Of a stretch of DNA of 27,584 bases, positions 2,808 to 26,538 are shown piece after piece. A program made the translations under genes and the position numbers. How positions within the stretch are numbered: position 1 is the first letter of the stretch; the number at the start of each line of letters is the position of its first letter. The stretch comes from a virus (taxonomy: Duplodnaviria; Heunggongvirae; Uroviricota; Caudoviricetes). Where the stretch lies: IMG/VR virus record IMGVR_UViG_640753024_000006, positions 1 to 27,584 of that record; one strand, 5' to 3'. Below the pieces are notes generated by a model that ran no database searches, was not told the DNA's origin, and saw only the letters and a program-made list of their open reading frames with translations.

Positions 2808-4340
2808 CTACTGGTTCACAGAATCGCGGGTTTCAATCCCCTTCACCCATTTCGGATCATTCGGATCGCTAATCCCTGCAACAAATTCACCACGTGATAC
2901 TGCAAGCAGTTCATCGGCGTCAGGCTGGCTGATATTGGCTGCCTGCATAATGTTGTTTACTTCGTCAGCGGTAACTTTTACCGGCCCTGGTTGTGCGGTC
3001 GTGTCAGATGCACCAGTATTTTGTTGTGAACCTGAGTATGTACCGTTTTTGCGGACGAAATATTCTTCTTTCGTGATTTCAGTAGCCCCGGCAGCCAGTG
3101 CCTTATCCAGACCAGAAAGTTTGTTTGCGCGACCGTATTTTTCGCCATCCTTGTCGGTGAAGAGGAAGTAGAACGGCCCCTCACGCTCTACAGATGGTTC
3201 GACTTCCACTTTGCATTCGGTTTTTTCGTTGTCCGGAATTGCCGTTTCCACTGCATCAGTTTCTGGTACTGGCGACGAGAGAGTATCAGTTGCGATCTGA
3301 TTTGTTCCTTCATCTTCAAACACGCCCTTTGTAGTCAGGTATTCAGTAATGTATTTGTTCAGTGCCACAGGGTCTTTGTGAATGTCGATCGGACGCTCAC
3401 GGACAAGGCCAAAAATAGTCTGGCGGTCGTAGCGAAGGGCATCAGGCTGTTTGCGCATTGATGCCGAGATACGCTTCCAGTCTTCGCGGTCGTTGTTGAT
3501 AACTTCATTTTTTGCCCAGCGATGGATGCTGCCGTCAATGTTTCCGGCATCAATGTCACCAGGCCACAGAGCGTAGGCCAGTTCATCATCCAGTGTTTTC
3601 CATGTCTGCTTGTATTCGCGATGAGTGGCAGCAATGGCCGGGTTGATTTTTCCTGTTGAATTTTCAGTGTTCTGTTGATTGGCTCTGGCGCGGGCGAGAT
3701 CAACAACAGACGTGTATTTTCCGGTTTCCTTGCGTTCACCTTCGCGACGTTTTTTCCAGATGCGCATCTCTGCCTGAATTTCGGGCCATTTGGCACCAGG
3801 CTTACATTTATGCTTAACCCACCCGATGGTATGCAGCTTAAGCTCCGGATACATGGCGTTAACTTCTGGCATTTTCATCAACGCTTCAACGATATGTCCG
3901 TCGAATGTTGCCATGTCTTCCTGCAACAATTCCTGCGCGCTAATCACCATATCAACGGTGATATTTTCACATGTGTCGAACTTAACCATGACAGCGTTCT
4001 GTACTTCAGGGGCCAGCTTGTCAAAAGTGACGTTCATCGGATCTGATTCAGTCTCAACCGGTACAAAGGAAGCAGACTCCTCATCCCAGCGGTTTTCCTG
4101 CATATATTCAGCATCCCAGGAATCGAGGGCAGGGCGGGGTATACCGGGTTTATCCTCGCAAACAAGAAATTTATAAGCGCAGTCCTGAGCAGCCGGATAA
4201 TGTTCCAGGAATTGCCAGTGAAATTTTGCGCGGGCGCGACGTTCATCACCAGCTTCAATGGCAGTGGCTACAGCGACTGCACCTTCTTCCTTTATTGCCT
4301 GTTCGTCCGGAATGGCGGCGCAAATAAAGACTTTACTCAT
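2808..4340 (-). CDS. Hypothetical early protein (510 aa), function unknown
   Basis: Long uninterrupted ORF on the same strand as exo/xis/int; no motif recognised by eye. Confidence 0.6.
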
Positions 4341-4433
4341 TTTGTTTTAACCTCATTACAGATTTAAGGATGAACAAATCCCTGCCATTGCTGGCATATA
4401 AGAATGAAATCGGATGTTTATTACGGAACTGTT

Positions 4434-4625
4434 TTAAAGACCTGCCGGGATTTCGTTATTATCCTGGTGAATAACTTTATCGACCGGGTAACAGTTACCG
4501 GGAATTTTCTGTTCGGTTGCTGCAGTCATACATTCCTGCATTGTCCTGTGAACACTGACTGCAATATCAACTGGCTCTCCGGAAACAAGATAAACTGTCA
4601 GAACAAGCGCAAATGCTGAATTCAT
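4434..4625 (-). CDS. Small putative secreted/periplasmic protein (63 aa)
   Basis: Start ATG at 4625 with AAGGA RBS; hydrophobic N-terminal signal-like segment; start overlaps the stop of the upstream gene as ATGA (coupling). Confidence 0.5.
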   Translation of the reverse strand: MNSAFALVLTVYLVSGEPVDIAVSVHRTMQECMTAATEQKIPGNCYPVDKVIHQDNNEIPAGL

Positions 4626-4810
4626 TGTGCACATCCTTTTGGCATCAGACGTAAACGAGCCAGCATTGAAACAATGCATATTTTATTTAATAGCTCCCGT
4701 TCTTGTTTTCTCTTGTTAATGGCATCTTCAGTAAATACTGGGTTACTGATAGTGACACCAATTTCAAAACAACCTTCAGACGTATTAACGTTTGGTAATA
4801 ACGTTTCCAT
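4622..4810 (-). CDS. Small hypothetical protein (62 aa)
   Basis: ATG at 4810 with GAGGA RBS 8-9 nt upstream; stop overlaps the next gene's start (ATGA). Confidence 0.45.
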   Translation of the reverse strand: METLLPNVNTSEGCFEIGVTISNPVFTEDAINKRKQERELLNKICIVSMLARLRLMPKGCAQ

Positions 4811-4827: not shown

Positions 4828-4975
4828 TGAATTTTGTGATGCGGTGCCTGGTGCCTCCAGGTGACGTTAACCAGTTAACAATTAACGCCGGATACAGAGA
4901 ACCCACCCATAACACTGTTTTTGGTTTTAACTGTTCCGCGTGCGCTTAGCCGCATTCACCGCATCACAAAATTCA
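4828..4975. repeat. Perfect 19-bp inverted repeat pair (tgaattttgtgatgcggtg / caccgcatcacaaaattca) separated by 110 bp
   Basis: Arms at 4828-4846 and 4957-4975 are exact reverse complements; the left arm abuts the RBS of the 4810 gene. Confidence 0.8.
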
Positions 4976-5373
4976 CTTTAAAAAGGGCGGCAGAGCAGTC
5001 ACGGAGTAAAACTGATACCGCCAAACGCCACCAGAAAATTGATAACAGAGGGCGTTGCAGCGGGGTTGTCACTTAAGCGTATGGTCAACCTGACAACCCG
5101 GTGTCCTCAACGGGGAAGGAATAACCCCGCCATACTTACCGCCGCGCCATTTCGCGGAGTGCCACAACCGGAAGCGCACGGTCGAATTAAATTTAACGAC
5201 ACCGTACAGAGAGACCAATTTCGCCGTGCGCTTTCGCGTTATGCTCTGGCTTTTCAGGGATATATCCTTTCAGTAAACTGTCAGTACCGGATTCTTATCC
5301 GTGTCCGGCGCACGACCACACGTGGCAGCGTGTTGGTCTCCATTTTTAACCCAGAACCTCAATGGAGGATAAA

Positions 5374-5583
5374 ATGCCAAACAAAAAAAGAAATCCGCTT
5401 ATTGAAAAACAGATTGAATGCCTGGTAAATCAACTCAGGCAATCAGGGTTATTAAAAACTCATTCAGAGTTGAGGCTAACAGAATCAGCATTCGACGATA
5501 AATTAAATAATGTCCTTTATAATGGCATTATTGATTTTAATCGTTCTGTTGGTCGCCGCGGCCCTGCTGGTGTTTCCTTATAA
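5374..5583 (+). CDS. Small hypothetical protein (69 aa), AT-rich
   Basis: GGAGG RBS 6 nt upstream of ATG 5374; ends tail-to-tail with zero spacing against the 5584-6222 gene, so one of the two might be spurious. Confidence 0.4.
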   Translation: MPNKKRNPLIEKQIECLVNQLRQSGLLKTHSELRLTESAFDDKLNNVLYNGIIDFNRSVGRRGPAGVSL

Positions 5584-6222
5584 TTACCAGTCAATCCAGA
5601 GCGGACCGTGTTCAGCGTAAATATAACTGTACACATCCAGGTTATATTTGTGGTCTGTTAAGAACAGGCCGCAAATACATGCCGAAGCTTCCAGGGCAGC
5701 GGCTCTGTTACTGAATAACCATGTAGCAACATTCCAGCGTTTTTCTGCATCCCAGTCTTTCTCAAGGCCTGATACCATGAAGAAACCGTTAGTGTTGCCA
5801 TCAAATAATTCTGTTTCCAGATTTTTAAGCAATGCCTGATGGACTCTTGCCAGGTATTCCGCCGGAATTTCGCCACGAATTCTGATGAGATTGTCATAAA
5901 CAAACATGTTCCCCGCATATGGCGATTTTTCTTTCTTGTTTTTTAAACCAGCATCATGAGCAAACTGATCAATTTCTTCTTCCGTTGGTTTCGTATTGAT
6001 GTTTTGCGCTGTCGTTTCTGCAATTTTATTTGCCACACTATCTGAGTCGTGTTTATTTACAGACGCACAGAAATACAATCCGGTAAACGCATCGCGCACA
6101 TTACGAGCTATATTATCAGTGTCTTTTTTCGTTACCGATTCCAATGCAAGTTCGTTCAGACGATGACGAAGTGTGTGTGCTGCAATCTCCTGGATTGAAG
6201 TAGGTAAATCTTTAAATTCCAT
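5584..6222 (-). CDS. Hypothetical protein (212 aa), AT-rich, in the position lambda/Rac uses for sieB/kil-type genes
   Basis: GAGG RBS before ATG at 6222; longer in-frame start at 6234 overlaps the upstream stop as TGATG; no transmembrane segments or recognised motif. Confidence 0.6.
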   Translation of the reverse strand: MEFKDLPTSIQEIAAHTLRHRLNELALESVTKKDTDNIARNVRDAFTGLYFCASVNKHDSDSVANKIAETTAQNINTKPTEEEIDQFAHDAGLKNKKEKSPYAGNMFVYDNLIRIRGEIPAEYLARVHQALLKNLETELFDGNTNGFFMVSGLEKDWDAEKRWNVATWLFSNRAAALEASACICGLFLTDHKYNLDVYSYIYAEHGPLWIDW

Positions 6223-6233
6223 CGTCAACCTCA

Positions 6234-6386
6234 TCAGTCAGAGTTTCTTGCTAACCAGCGATGCGCGCCAGCTTCGGTTTTAAACGTTTTACTTTTGGTA
6301 TACGTCATCGCGGTGAACGTGCCGTCCTGGTTGGGAAACACGCCGCACACCAGAGATTCGTTGTTGCCAAGATCGATAGTATCCAT
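6234..6386 (-). CDS. Small DUF1391-like protein (YdaF/YdfA-like, 50 aa)
   Basis: MDTIDLGNNESLV...TAMTYTKSKTFKTE...RWL..N matches my memory of Rac YdaF / Qin YdfA small proteins; GAGG RBS upstream of ATG 6386. Confidence 0.55.
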   Translation of the reverse strand: MDTIDLGNNESLVCGVFPNQDGTFTAMTYTKSKTFKTEAGAHRWLARNSD

Positions 6387-6616
6387 GTTGACCTCATTTC
6401 CCCTTAACGCCGGGGTGGCGGAACAAAAACCTGCTGCATAGTTATTAAAGTTGAACCCTGCCGTCATGTTCTTACGCCTCGGGCTGGCTACTTAACCCCT
6501 GACCACTGCCTGGTAACTCGAAGTATTGCCCTGCGTTCTGTGGGGCGGGGTGGGTTGGTATTTTTAGTTTAATAAACATTAAACTTAAGTCAAGTAAAAA
6601 CTAAACCTCGGGACAT

Positions 6617-6677: not shown

Positions 6678-6956
6678 TTAGGGAAACTGGCGTCTTGCGT
6701 GGATCACGTTTACTACTTCAACGCTTGATGTTGTTACGCGGTATAGAATTATATAGTTAGGGTGGGCTACAATCTCACGCAAGCCAGGTACTCTGTCGCT
6801 TGGTGGGTATAAATACGGATGTTCGGATAACGGCAGCACACAACCCCTTAATCGCTGCCATAAGCGTTCAGCCGCATCTATGTCGAAACGAGCAATATAA
6901 CTAGTTATATCATCTAGGTCGGTATCTGCGCTTTCAAGCCATAACACGGGTAACAT
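6678..6956 (-). CDS. Type II toxin, RelE/ParE superfamily
   Basis: About 92 aa; C-terminal IILYRV...VEVVNVIHARR is typical of ParE/RelE toxins; ATG at 6956 directly follows the antitoxin stop (6958-6960). Confidence 0.7.
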   Translation of the reverse strand: MLPVLWLESADTDLDDITSYIARFDIDAAERLWQRLRGCVLPLSEHPYLYPPSDRVPGLREIVAHPNYIILYRVTTSSVEVVNVIHARRQFP

Positions 6957-6957
6957 T

Positions 6958-7149
6958 TTACTGCTTGCTCCGTTCCTTGCGCATCTTAGCAAAGCGTTCT
7001 GCCATTCTGCGCTCAATTTCGTCATGGGGAATTGCTGGGCGCGGATCTGCAAGGCTCGCTGCTACTTTCGCACGCAGCCATTCGTTGTAACTGTTTTCTT
7101 GTTCAATGGTTTCAAATTCAGAAACCATTGGTGAAAGGGCTCTATTCAT
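6958..7149 (-). CDS. Putative type II antitoxin (family uncertain, ParD/stability-determinant-like)
   Basis: 63-aa acidic/basic ORF immediately upstream of and abutting the toxin; GGAGGA RBS before ATG 7149. Confidence 0.6.
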   Translation of the reverse strand: MNRALSPMVSEFETIEQENSYNEWLRAKVAASLADPRPAIPHDEIERRMAERFAKMRKERSKQ

Positions 7150-7169
7150 GTTTCCTCCGGTTTTATAAC

Positions 7170-7541
7170 TCAGGCGCGGCGGCATTTTTGCGCCGCAATC
7201 CATCTCGCTATGAGATCTTCCATTGATTCTTTTTTCTGCTTTAACTCGCTGATTATCTGGCGTTGCTCATCCTCAGGGAAGGCTGAAAAAATCTGCAATA
7301 ACTCCAGTTGATTAGACGTTAACCCTGCATGTGGTGGAGAAACCCCCGGTTGCTCTGAGTATTCCGCATCCAGATACCCTTCCGGCATCCCGTATGTTTG
7401 CTCTATTCTTCTGGCAGCCTTTTCTCCAAACGAGGCTCTCCCACTCATTAGTTGAGATAGGTAGCTCTTCTCTTTGGGTGGCAGAGTTTTATCTTTAAAC
7501 CACTCCTTGAGACGTAAACGGCGAATTTCTTTTTTTTGCAT
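7170..7541 (-). CDS. Prophage repressor, DicA/RacR-like (HTH_XRE N-terminus, DicA-like C-terminus)
   Basis: N-terminal HTH-like segment (SYLSQLMSGRASFGEKAARRIEQTYGM) and C-terminal LELLQIFSAFPEDEQ, similar to DicA as I recall it; divergent from a Cro-like gene. Start taken at ATG 7541; the longer track ORF would run into the operator region. Confidence 0.7.
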   Translation of the reverse strand: MQKKEIRRLRLKEWFKDKTLPPKEKSYLSQLMSGRASFGEKAARRIEQTYGMPEGYLDAEYSEQPGVSPPHAGLTSNQLELLQIFSAFPEDEQRQIISELKQKKESMEDLIARWIAAQKCRRA

Positions 7542-12330: not shown

Positions 12331-12540
12331 AAACGGTTTGCAGTGAAAGGGGAGTTAAGTAGAATTGCTGCGGGTGCTTGAGGCTATCTGTCTCAGGCAT
12401 GAACACCAAAGGCAGATAGAGAAAAGCCCCAGTTAACATTACGCGTCCTGCAAGACGCTTAACATTAATCTGAGGCCCAATCTATGTCTCACAAATGTAG
12501 GTTAGCCTCTTACGTGCCGAAAGGCAAGGAGAAGCAGGCT

Positions 12541-12696
12541 ATGAAGCAGCAAAAGGCGATGTTAATCGCCCTTATCGTCATCTGTTTAACCGTCATAGTG
12601 ACGGCACTGGTAACGAGGAAAGACCTCTGCGAGGTACGAATCCGAACCGGCCAGACGGAGGTCGCTGTCTTCACAGCTTACGAACCTGAGGAGTAA
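12541..12696 (+). CDS. hok: Hok/Gef-family type I toxin (HokD/RelF-like)
   Basis: MKQQKAMLIALIVICLTVIVTALVTRKDLCEVRIRTGQTEVAVFTAYEPEE matches the Hok-family pattern (TM helix, conserved C..R..G.EVA.F) and my memory of RelF/HokD; AGGAGA RBS; structured leader upstream. Confidence 0.8.
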   Translation: MKQQKAMLIALIVICLTVIVTALVTRKDLCEVRIRTGQTEVAVFTAYEPEE

Positions 12697-18566: not shown

Positions 18567-18642
18567 GGCCCTTTAGCTCAGTGGTGAGAGCGAGCGACTC
18601 ATAATCGCCAGGTCGCTGGTTCAAATCCAGCAAGGGCCACCA
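18567..18642 (+). tRNA. tRNA with anticodon CAU (Ile2/lysidine type, ileX/ileZ-like, or Met)
   Basis: Cloverleaf folds by hand: 7-bp acceptor GGCCCTT/AAGGGCC, D-arm GCTC..GAGC, anticodon loop CTCATAA, T-loop GGTTCAAATCC, CCA end. Confidence 0.8.
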
Positions 18643-18643
18643 A

Positions 18644-18720
18644 CCGTCACCAGTTCATCAGGAAAGAGCGTCAACCCTTTAAGTTGAGTGTGCGAGGTTC
18701 GAGTCCCCGGTGGCGGTCCA
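18644..18720 (+). tRNA. Aberrant tRNA-like element (anticodon-loop CCTTTAA, apparent anticodon UUU with C at position 33); possibly a degenerate tRNA
   Basis: Acceptor CCGTCAC/GTGGCGG (one G-U), T-loop GGTTCGAGTCC and CCA end, but non-canonical C33 and a mismatched T-stem. Confidence 0.35.
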
Positions 18721-18722
18721 GT

Positions 18723-18798
<76 letters not shown>

Positions 18799-18801
18799 TA
18801 T

Positions 18802-18876
<75 letters not shown>

Positions 18877-25954: not shown

Positions 25955-26538
25955 TGGCATTCAGAATGAGTGAACAAGCACGGACCATAAAAATTTATAA
26001 TCTGCTGGCCGGAACTAATGAATTTATTGGTGAAGGTGACGCATATATTCCGCCTCATACAGGTCTGCCAGCAAACAGTACCGATATTGCACCACCAGAT
26101 ATTCCTGCTGGCTTTGTGGCTGTTTTCAACAGTGATGAGGCATCGTGGCATCTCGTTGAAGACCATCGGGGTAAAACGGTTTATGACGTAGCGTCAGGGG
26201 ACGAGTTATTTATTTCTGAACTCGGTCCGTTACCGGAAAATGTTACCTGGTTATCGCCGGAAGGGGAGTTTCAGAAGTGGAACGGCACAGCCTGGGTGAA
26301 GGATACGGAAGCAGAAAAACTGTTCCGGATCCGGGAGGCGGAAGAAACAAAAAACAACCTGATGCAGGTAGCCAGTGAGCATATTGCGCCGCTTCAGGAT
26401 GCTGCAGATCTGGAAATTGCAACGGAGGAAGAAACCTCATTGCTGGAAGCCTGGAAAAAGTATCGGGTGTTGCTGAACCGTGTTGATACATCAACTGCAC
26501 CTGATATTGAGTGGCCTACGAACCCTGTCAGGGAGTAA
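25954..26538 (+). CDS. tfa: Tail fibre assembly chaperone Tfa
   Basis: 194 aa; start overlaps the stf stop (TAATG); conserved Tfa C-terminal region (...[25 protein letters not shown]...). Confidence 0.85.

Follow-up and report, generated by a model that had tools for sequence, protein, structure and literature searches.

A convergent gene pair in the early-left operon of a Qin/Rac-type Escherichia coli prophage as a candidate defence and self-immunity cassette

In the TERi system of Listeria monocytogenes comK-prophages a defence protein of 65 amino acids (aa), TerI, is read from the strand opposite to the early lytic module, and an overlapping gene of the early operon encodes a self-immunity protein that binds TerI. 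The TERi promoter is conserved in 96% of comK-prophages with the gene behind it alternating; the partners are anti-TerI1 and anti-TerI2, and the target of TerI (TerS), the binding and the defence phenotype have been demonstrated (bioRxiv 10.1101/2025.02.27.640495). Tai/Ati of phage phi80 is a non-contiguous operon in which the immune gene opposes the lytic operon holding the matching counter-defence gene. The lysogen produces the immunity protein, production of the antidote is restricted to the lytic cycle, and the two cognate proteins bind each other (PMC11364771). Tab of Pseudomonas and Tha/Ith of Staphylococcus aureus are cited as being of the same non-contiguous kind in bioRxiv 10.1101/2025.02.27.640495, and BstA/aba is another case of self-immunity (PMC8585504). 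Here we analyse a two-gene cassette in a stretch of 27,584 nucleotides (nt), IMG/VR record IMGVR_UViG_640753024_000006 (positions 1 to 27,584, “the window” in the following); this stretch is an E. coli lambdoid prophage of the Qin/Rac type. The cassette consists of a gene for a 69-aa protein on the plus strand (5374–5583) and a gene for a 212-aa protein on the minus strand (5584–6222), the 69-aa gene lying antisense within the minus-strand operon that runs from ydfA to DicF, a small RNA (sRNA), and to dicB.

By analogy, the layout of the cassette matches that of prophage defence/counter-defence non-contiguous operons: an opposite-strand gene interrupts the lytic operon, its adjacent partner is co-inherited and a conserved upstream region carries alternating cargo. 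In the reading that we favour, at a rough probability of 0.42, the lysogen would make the 69-aa protein as a defence factor, and the 212-aa protein, via its C-terminal domain (C212), would be the cognate self-immunity factor. It draws on architecture, linkage and analogy. In the lysogen, with the early operon repressed, the 69-aa protein would be made and would act against superinfecting phages. Upon induction or infection the early operon would yield the 212-aa protein, whose C212 domain would bind and neutralise the 69-aa protein and in this way keep the phage from excluding itself; convergent transcription would additionally silence the 69-aa gene. A first-pass annotation of the window had proposed the 212-aa protein as an exclusion or anti-defence candidate. 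Its positional argument stands; by analogy with TERi and Tai/Ati, however, the 69-aa protein would be the better exclusion candidate and the 212-aa protein its antidote. The cognate pairing of the 69-aa gene with C212, which is the main point, had been missed.

The gene pair and its linkage

Both open reading frames (ORFs) had been described correctly in the first-pass annotation, including the strong ribosome-binding site of the 69-aa gene and the zero tail-to-tail spacing. The 212-aa gene corresponds to RefSeq WP_012138129.1 and phrog_2151 (full-length match), and its exact protein sequence is the “Ybl81” protein of enterotoxigenic E. coli (ETEC) E24377A. The 69-aa gene corresponds to RefSeq WP_001133037.1 and phrog_4274, with a GGAGG 5 nt ahead of its ATG. 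The full-length PHROG families match the two ORFs with E-values of 1e-144 and 1e-52, and their stop codons stand directly side by side (5583/5584). The 1-nt stop/start overlap (TGATG) reported for the other end of the 212-aa gene belongs to an upstream ATG at 6234 that would give 216 aa and has to be given up. Homologues and RefSeq favour a start at 6222, 11 nt past the ydfA stop; the PHROG profile does so too, its match to the 216-aa ORF beginning only at residue 5, and a GAGG Shine-Dalgarno sequence lies 6 nt ahead of this start.

An exhaustive search of 1.8 billion representative proteins with hidden Markov models (HMMs) splits the 212-aa protein into two modules. The N-terminal helical “MEFKDLP” module (residues 1 to ~60; 6046–6222, minus strand) matches phrog_1363, 9419, 6937 and 33007 and heads many early-left prophage proteins of 42–201 aa with unrelated C-termini, proteins of Shiga toxin 2 (Stx2) phages included. 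The C212 domain (residues ~98–212, ~115 aa; 5584–5931, minus strand) is the candidate cognate partner of the 69-aa protein. Its AlphaFold2 model is a two-layer alpha/beta sandwich of topology b-b-a-b-b-a-b (predicted local distance difference test score, pLDDT, 80; predicted template modelling score, pTM, 0.74), a confident model that was obtained with distant Salmonella sequences added to the alignment. The full-length 212-aa model, built from a shallow alignment, was poor (pLDDT 62) and was left out of the fold search. In the HMM search full-length C212 was confined to Escherichia and Salmonella, and the only distant copies, at ~30% identity, belong to P0190 and P0182, two prophage proteins of Salmonella in which C212 stands behind a different N-domain with or without a helix-turn-helix (HTH).

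In every locus holding a 69-aa homologue (83/83) C212 was found tail-to-tail with it. Across E. coli and Salmonella the pair stays together in three settings with unrelated flanks. In that of E. coli, C212 is part of an N-domain fusion after ydfA. In one Salmonella prophage (L003) a stand-alone C212 ORF follows a Cox-like gene, again with zero spacing to the 69-aa homologue; this ORF (5211–5627, minus strand) had been missed by the gene caller in the source record. In two others (L007 and L010) C212 sits on a different N-domain, with or without HTH, after Int, repressor and Cox, and overlaps the small gene by 11 nt and 53 nt. N-domain alleles swap at 45–100% identity while C212 stays at 74–100%, and recombination breaks were found between N-domain and C212 and none between C212 and the 69-aa gene. 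Since variable N-domain alleles stand on a near-constant C212/69-aa unit, recombination is frequent 300 bp away and has left the pair unsplit. In addition the two partners are of complementary charge, with an isoelectric point (pI) of ~5 for C212 (4.7–5.0) against ~9.7 for the 69-aa protein (range 9.4–9.9). Taken from these sequence comparisons, the 69-aa gene and C212 appear to be one co-inherited cognate pair inside a polymorphic cassette locus.

These patterns also bear on the alternative that the two genes are independent “morons” and mere neighbours, the 212-aa protein being an early host-modifying or anti-defence factor and the 69-aa protein a lysogenic-conversion factor or regulator, with no interaction between them. 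Genes with zero spacing are hard to split by recombination, both single-gene loss states exist and neither protein has a known function, all of which would suit such neighbours. We nevertheless consider this explanation unlikely, as the pair moved as a unit into at least three contexts with the flanks recombining right at its borders, as N-domain alleles were swapped freely so close by, and as several other small-ORF/tail families keep a one-to-one pairing of their own (see below).

Both genes show the marks of maintained proteins. The ratio of nonsynonymous to synonymous substitution rates (dN/dS) is 0.15–0.24 for the 69-aa gene and 0.17–0.40 for C212, values from which both are judged to be under purifying selection. 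The protein-like conservation pattern of the 69-aa homologues persists down to 44% identity, and Salmonella homologues of the ORFs are found at 33–52% identity. Both ORFs are conserved in related prophages, a point on which the first-pass annotation had made its proposal depend. That the ORFs are chance reading frames in AT-rich DNA, as could be argued from their lack of Pfam domains, is refuted by these conservation data: dN/dS of 0.15–0.40, the PHROG matches, the Salmonella homologues and the confident C212 model all speak against it. Among 5426 complete E. coli genomes the 69-aa gene is present in 596 (743 places, ~11%) and a C212-bearing gene in 593 (740 places). A scan of GTDB representative genomes with the 69-aa profile gave no match.

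The 69-aa ORF contains an A7 homopolymer in codons 4–6 (5383–5389, plus strand). Among 85 related loci compared, 72 carry A7 and 13 carry A6, the latter variant coding for a truncated protein of 17 aa (MPNKKEIRLLKNRLNAW). The difference could reflect phase variation or homopolymer sequencing error.

Homology and fold searches, which the first-pass annotation had suggested as a check, gave no mundane function in Pfam, NCBIfam, PADLOC, the PDB sequence search or the fold search. Matches in Pfam, PHROGs, NCBIfam and PADLOC were families of unknown function or absent for both proteins; sequence and profile searches against the PDB gave no match for either, and the fold search with the C212 model returned no solved or viral structure that was specifically similar. 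Literature searches for Ybl81 and the two RefSeq accessions found nothing. Several identities were tried and rejected. A Prp-like cysteine protease was rejected for the 212-aa protein, whose Salmonella homologues do not keep the Cys residues. SUKH/SMI1 immunity proteins came into question through a likeness to “GxIPxxY...NG”, but Pfam and the fold searches gave no SMI1 match. Neither protein matches Pfam SieB at E ≤ 0.1, and both are hydrophilic (grand average of hydropathy −0.44 and −0.53). A type II toxin-antitoxin module does not fit, as the genes are convergent and not co-directional and no toxin or antitoxin family was found in Pfam, NCBIfam or PADLOC. Identity with YdfB/YdfC of K-12 was dismissed as well: the protein sequences show no relation, and no DNA alignment was obtained for the interval that separates ydfA from the DicF precursor.

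Leader and polymorphic cassette locus

Upstream of the 69-aa gene we read from the sequence a promoter-like element (5251–5279, plus strand) with a −35 hexamer TTTTCA (5251–5256), a 17-nt spacer and a −10 hexamer TAAACT (5274–5279). The element is below the threshold of our consensus scan. In at least 8 unrelated upstream contexts a −10-like hexamer, often with an extended TG, is located exactly 7 nt before the CCGGA of the first hairpin of the leader (H1), and the transcript is predicted to start at H1, near 5286 in the window. The ~90 nt ahead of the 69-aa ORF are conserved across all contexts. According to the RNAalifold consensus and a covariance model (R1; 106.5 bits for the window) they form a leader of three hairpins (5284–5377, plus strand): H1 (CCGGA...TCCGG, 5287–5308), H2 (5314–5338) and H3, in which CTCCAT (5338–5343) pairs with ATGGAG (5362–5367). 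By this model H3 is predicted to sequester the Shine-Dalgarno sequence of the 69-aa gene.

Single-sequence folds of the leader have z-scores of −2.3 to −4.5. Double changes were counted at 10 of 21 leader pairs (7 of 8 in H2) in an alignment that was itself fitted to the structure, H1 and H3 being fixed by the search pattern and H2 unconstrained. H2 occurs with at least 7 different stem sequences. None of 500 shuffles reached the observed covariation, and slid controls did not exceed 0.046, compared with 0.142 for the leader. Folding energies are similar on both strands and do not settle which strand forms the hairpins. The leader has no matching Rfam family; the sRNA svsR (PMC12803456), considered as a counterpart, is unrelated and maps to the cI 3’ end. 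Scanning IMG/VR for the leader pattern yielded at least 120 instances.

The same leader precedes at least 10 unrelated families of small ORFs (57–112 aa), for none of which a function was found. Most of these ORFs either point towards or extend into the 3’ end of a gene that encodes the MEFKDLP domain and a family-specific tail, and the pairing of small ORF and tail is essentially one-to-one: the partner of the 69-aa family is C212 (60 of 62 contexts), that of the “MSEQELKL” family a tail ending in “...KMLSDQPIKISF” and that of a zinc-ribbon family a tail containing “...HWFNPV...”, and other families obey the same rule. L003 carries two cassettes of leader and small ORF in tandem (4224–4508 and 4913–5627). 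Furthermore, two alternative small ORF families fall into phrog_8894 (IMG/VR loci; small ORFs e.g. MAKFTVRIELRD... and MHSKSNRYYVHV...). One of them resembles Pfam GhoS, a type V antitoxin endoribonuclease, with an E-value of 1.2e-3, just under the gathering score. In an alignment with the Qin prophage of K-12, ydfA and the DicF precursor are conserved and the DNA between them is replaced by ydfB and ydfC. The cassette of the window is one allele of a polymorphic convergent two-gene unit between ydfA and the DicF precursor.

Two loci hold remnants of the leader, both with weak covariance-model matches (26 and 29 bits): K-12 Qin (L002; 3545–3633, minus strand), antisense directly after ydfC, and the Stx2 phage VT2phi_272 (L084; 4421–4503, minus strand), after the N-domain gene. 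VT2phi_272 also retains a truncated remnant of one small ORF family. As judged from its position, the first remnant suggests that K-12 may make an unannotated antisense RNA against ydfC.

These remnants without an intact small ORF, antisense to the 3’ end of ydfC in one case, are also what one would look for if the cassette were primarily an RNA device. In such a device the plus-strand promoter and leader would give an antisense transcript that, through transcriptional interference or cleavage by RNase III, blocks leaky transcription of the toxic dicBF operon in the lysogen; the small ORFs would be secondary. The transcripts of the two genes must overlap given zero spacing and no terminator between them, and RNase III affects ydfA transcript stability in K-12 (PMC10448788). 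The only plus-strand terminator-like site downstream of the 69-aa gene lies at 6534–6560, just short of the early-left promoter, so that a plus-strand transcript could extend antisense through the whole 212-aa and ydfA genes. As the main function of the cassette we regard this as improbable: the 69-aa ORF is under purifying selection, with protein-like conservation and a strong Shine-Dalgarno sequence. An RNA effect is compatible with the defence/self-immunity reading, and the two can coexist.

Several observations weigh against the 69-aa protein as defence factor and C212 as its antidote. Abutting genes can stay linked without functional coupling. Neither protein has homology to a known defence or counter-defence protein in PADLOC, Pfam, NCBIfam or 50,697 GenBank phage records. 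The 69-aa gene and C212 are both absent from these records (tblastn; phi80 among them), so that the carriers may be mostly defective prophages. In 13 of the 85 loci C212 is intact while the 69-aa gene is frameshifted, and the reverse state was found in a few. A partner tail is not universal either, as some small ORFs are opposed by nothing more than an N-domain stub. Finally, the polarity could be reversed, with the 212-aa protein as effector and the 69-aa protein as immunity protein.

In this colicin-like arrangement the 212-aa protein would be a host-takeover or toxic effector of the lytic cycle, and the 69-aa protein a constitutive immunity protein or antitoxin shielding the lysogen from leaky expression and from the effector of superinfecting relatives. 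Linkage, cognate pairing and charge complementarity would be the same. Opposite-strand immunity genes with their own promoter are known from ionophoric (pore-forming) colicin operons (PMC9517006), a common N-domain with variable C-termini recalls polymorphic toxins, and one small ORF family in the slot is the weakly GhoS-like one, an antitoxin likeness below the Pfam cut-off. We still hold this polarity to be quite unlikely. The 13 loci with intact C212 opposite a frameshifted 69-aa ORF indicate that C212 is not acutely toxic when repressed; moreover, C212 is a small alpha/beta sandwich without a catalytic motif conserved between E. coli and Salmonella (Cys, for example, is not kept), and small ORFs also lie opposite N-domain stubs that have no effector tail.

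A wider proposal, and a more doubtful one than the assignment of roles within the pair, is that the whole ydfA–DicF interval is a plug-and-play conflict hotspot, in which at least 10 small proteins behind one Rfam-absent leader would each have a cognate early-operon antidote, mostly fused to a common N-terminal adaptor. If this were true, about a tenth of E. coli genomes, including enterohaemorrhagic E. coli (EHEC) and ETEC, would carry new defence/self-immunity families, and the leader would be a riboregulator tying small-protein expression to the on/off state of the early operon. Pathogenic E. coli and Salmonella would have at least 10 exclusion/self-immunity pairs of unannotated proteins in their prophages, cryptic ones and those associated with Shiga toxin. 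The logic of non-contiguous operons, described from Listeria, Staphylococcus, Pseudomonas and phi80, would be widened to the dicBF operon, and the variable genes beside DicF/DicB, unexplained since the 1980s, would gain a function. The pair itself is small (69 aa and a 115-aa domain), and the conserved leader offers a genomic marker for finding further cargo genes.

Prophage and operon setting

The early-left (dicBF-type) operon of the window runs on the minus strand in the order ydfA, 212-aa gene, DicF, dicB and ydfD. Including its flanks, the minus-strand order is a putative repressor gene, assigned by its position, a PaaA2/ParE pair, ydfA, the 212-aa gene, DicF, dicB, a DUF1482 gene (ydfD type) and a RecE-like exonuclease gene. 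The first gene of the operon, a ydfA-type DUF1391 gene of 50 aa (6234–6386, minus strand), was scanned as the longer ORF 6234–6467; it clears the gathering score of PF07151 (E 1.9e-29; 101.5 bits, cut-off 27.3), as the first-pass annotation had expected from the letters, and aligns to K-12 ydfA. A promoter-like site upstream of ydfA (TTGACT-16-TAAACT, 6566–6593, minus strand), found by the consensus scan, is a candidate counterpart of dicBp; it matches in position the DicA-repressed dicBp of Qin (PMC10448788). The DicA-repressed dicBF operon has been described in PMC5069750 and PMC10448788. Downstream of the cassette the operon strand carries DicF (4985–5036, minus strand; Rfam RF00039, 76.4 bits) and the cell-division inhibitor gene dicB (4622–4810, minus strand; Pfam DicB, E 6.9e-40; RefSeq annotation of the identical locus). 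The earlier assignment of the cassette to the exclusion slot of lambdoid phages agrees with this arrangement: it is promoter-proximal in a repressor-controlled early-left operon with DicF and dicB downstream, and Rac has sieB in the same slot. The region had also been called visibly AT-richer than its flanks. With 40.5% GC for 5374–6222 against a window mean of 48.5% (5.5th percentile among windows of the same size) the direction is right, but the difference is only modest and dicB together with ydfD is equally AT-rich.

Strain 720632 has an identical cassette and EDL933 a near-identical one, annotated in both only as “hypothetical protein”. The PaaA2-type antitoxin gene (6958–7203, minus strand) and the ParE toxin gene (6678–7052, minus strand), located between the putative repressor gene and the early-left promoter, are missing from the otherwise identical cassette locus of strain 720632. 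The RecE-like exonuclease ORF (2808–4340, minus strand; 510 aa) matches only positions 1–510 of an 823-residue PHROG profile; its counterpart in strain 720632 has 2472 nt, so that the copy in the window may be truncated or frameshifted. Other Rfam matches in the window are the sok antitoxin RNA (hok/sok), three tRNA genes and the IS009 RNA (12372–12546, 18567–18873 and 26297–26495, all plus strand).

Comparison with known systems

The Rac prophage has the gene order racR, ydaG, ydaF (DUF1391), sieB on the opposite strand with a 4-nt overlap with ydaF, the sRNA kilS and kilR. Rac sieB thereby occupies the same convergent slot in the same orientation, with a DUF1391 gene on one side and, on the other, an sRNA followed by a division inhibitor gene. 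With ~162 aa, however, Rac SieB is much longer than the 69-aa protein, which is hydrophilic and has no Pfam match to SieB, and the H1–H3 leader was not found in the region upstream of Rac sieB. In lambda and P22 the self-immunity factor to SieB, Esc, is an internal product of sieB. The corresponding variable slot of K-12 Qin, likewise flanked by ydfA and the DicF precursor, keeps a leader remnant antisense after ydfC; in contrast to the window, it contains the unrelated genes ydfB and ydfC, both oriented with the operon, and lacks an intact convergent ORF.

With pore-forming colicin operons and polymorphic toxin/immunity cassettes the locus would share a repressor- or SOS-controlled effector whose small opposite-strand partner has its own promoter (here promoter-like), and it shares a constant N-terminal part followed by variable C-terminal parts with matched partners. 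The proteins described here are intracellular phage products, though, and not secreted toxins, and no toxic domain was recognised in them. Tai/Ati differs in that it belongs to a Q-controlled late operon and its genes are divergent; it has no BLAST similarity to the present pair.

The closest likeness in architecture is to TERi: a small opposite-strand gene with its own promoter (here promoter-like), a conserved upstream region with alternating unrelated ORFs behind it, and a partner on the early-operon strand that overlaps or abuts and is co-distributed. The two share no sequence similarity and the host of TERi is Gram-positive. For TerI the target, the binding and the defence have been demonstrated, whereas the pair described here is known from its architecture. 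The cassettes described here differ from TERi in two further features: a common N-terminal module unites the partner proteins, and the small genes stand behind one structured leader, predicted to occlude the Shine-Dalgarno sequence.

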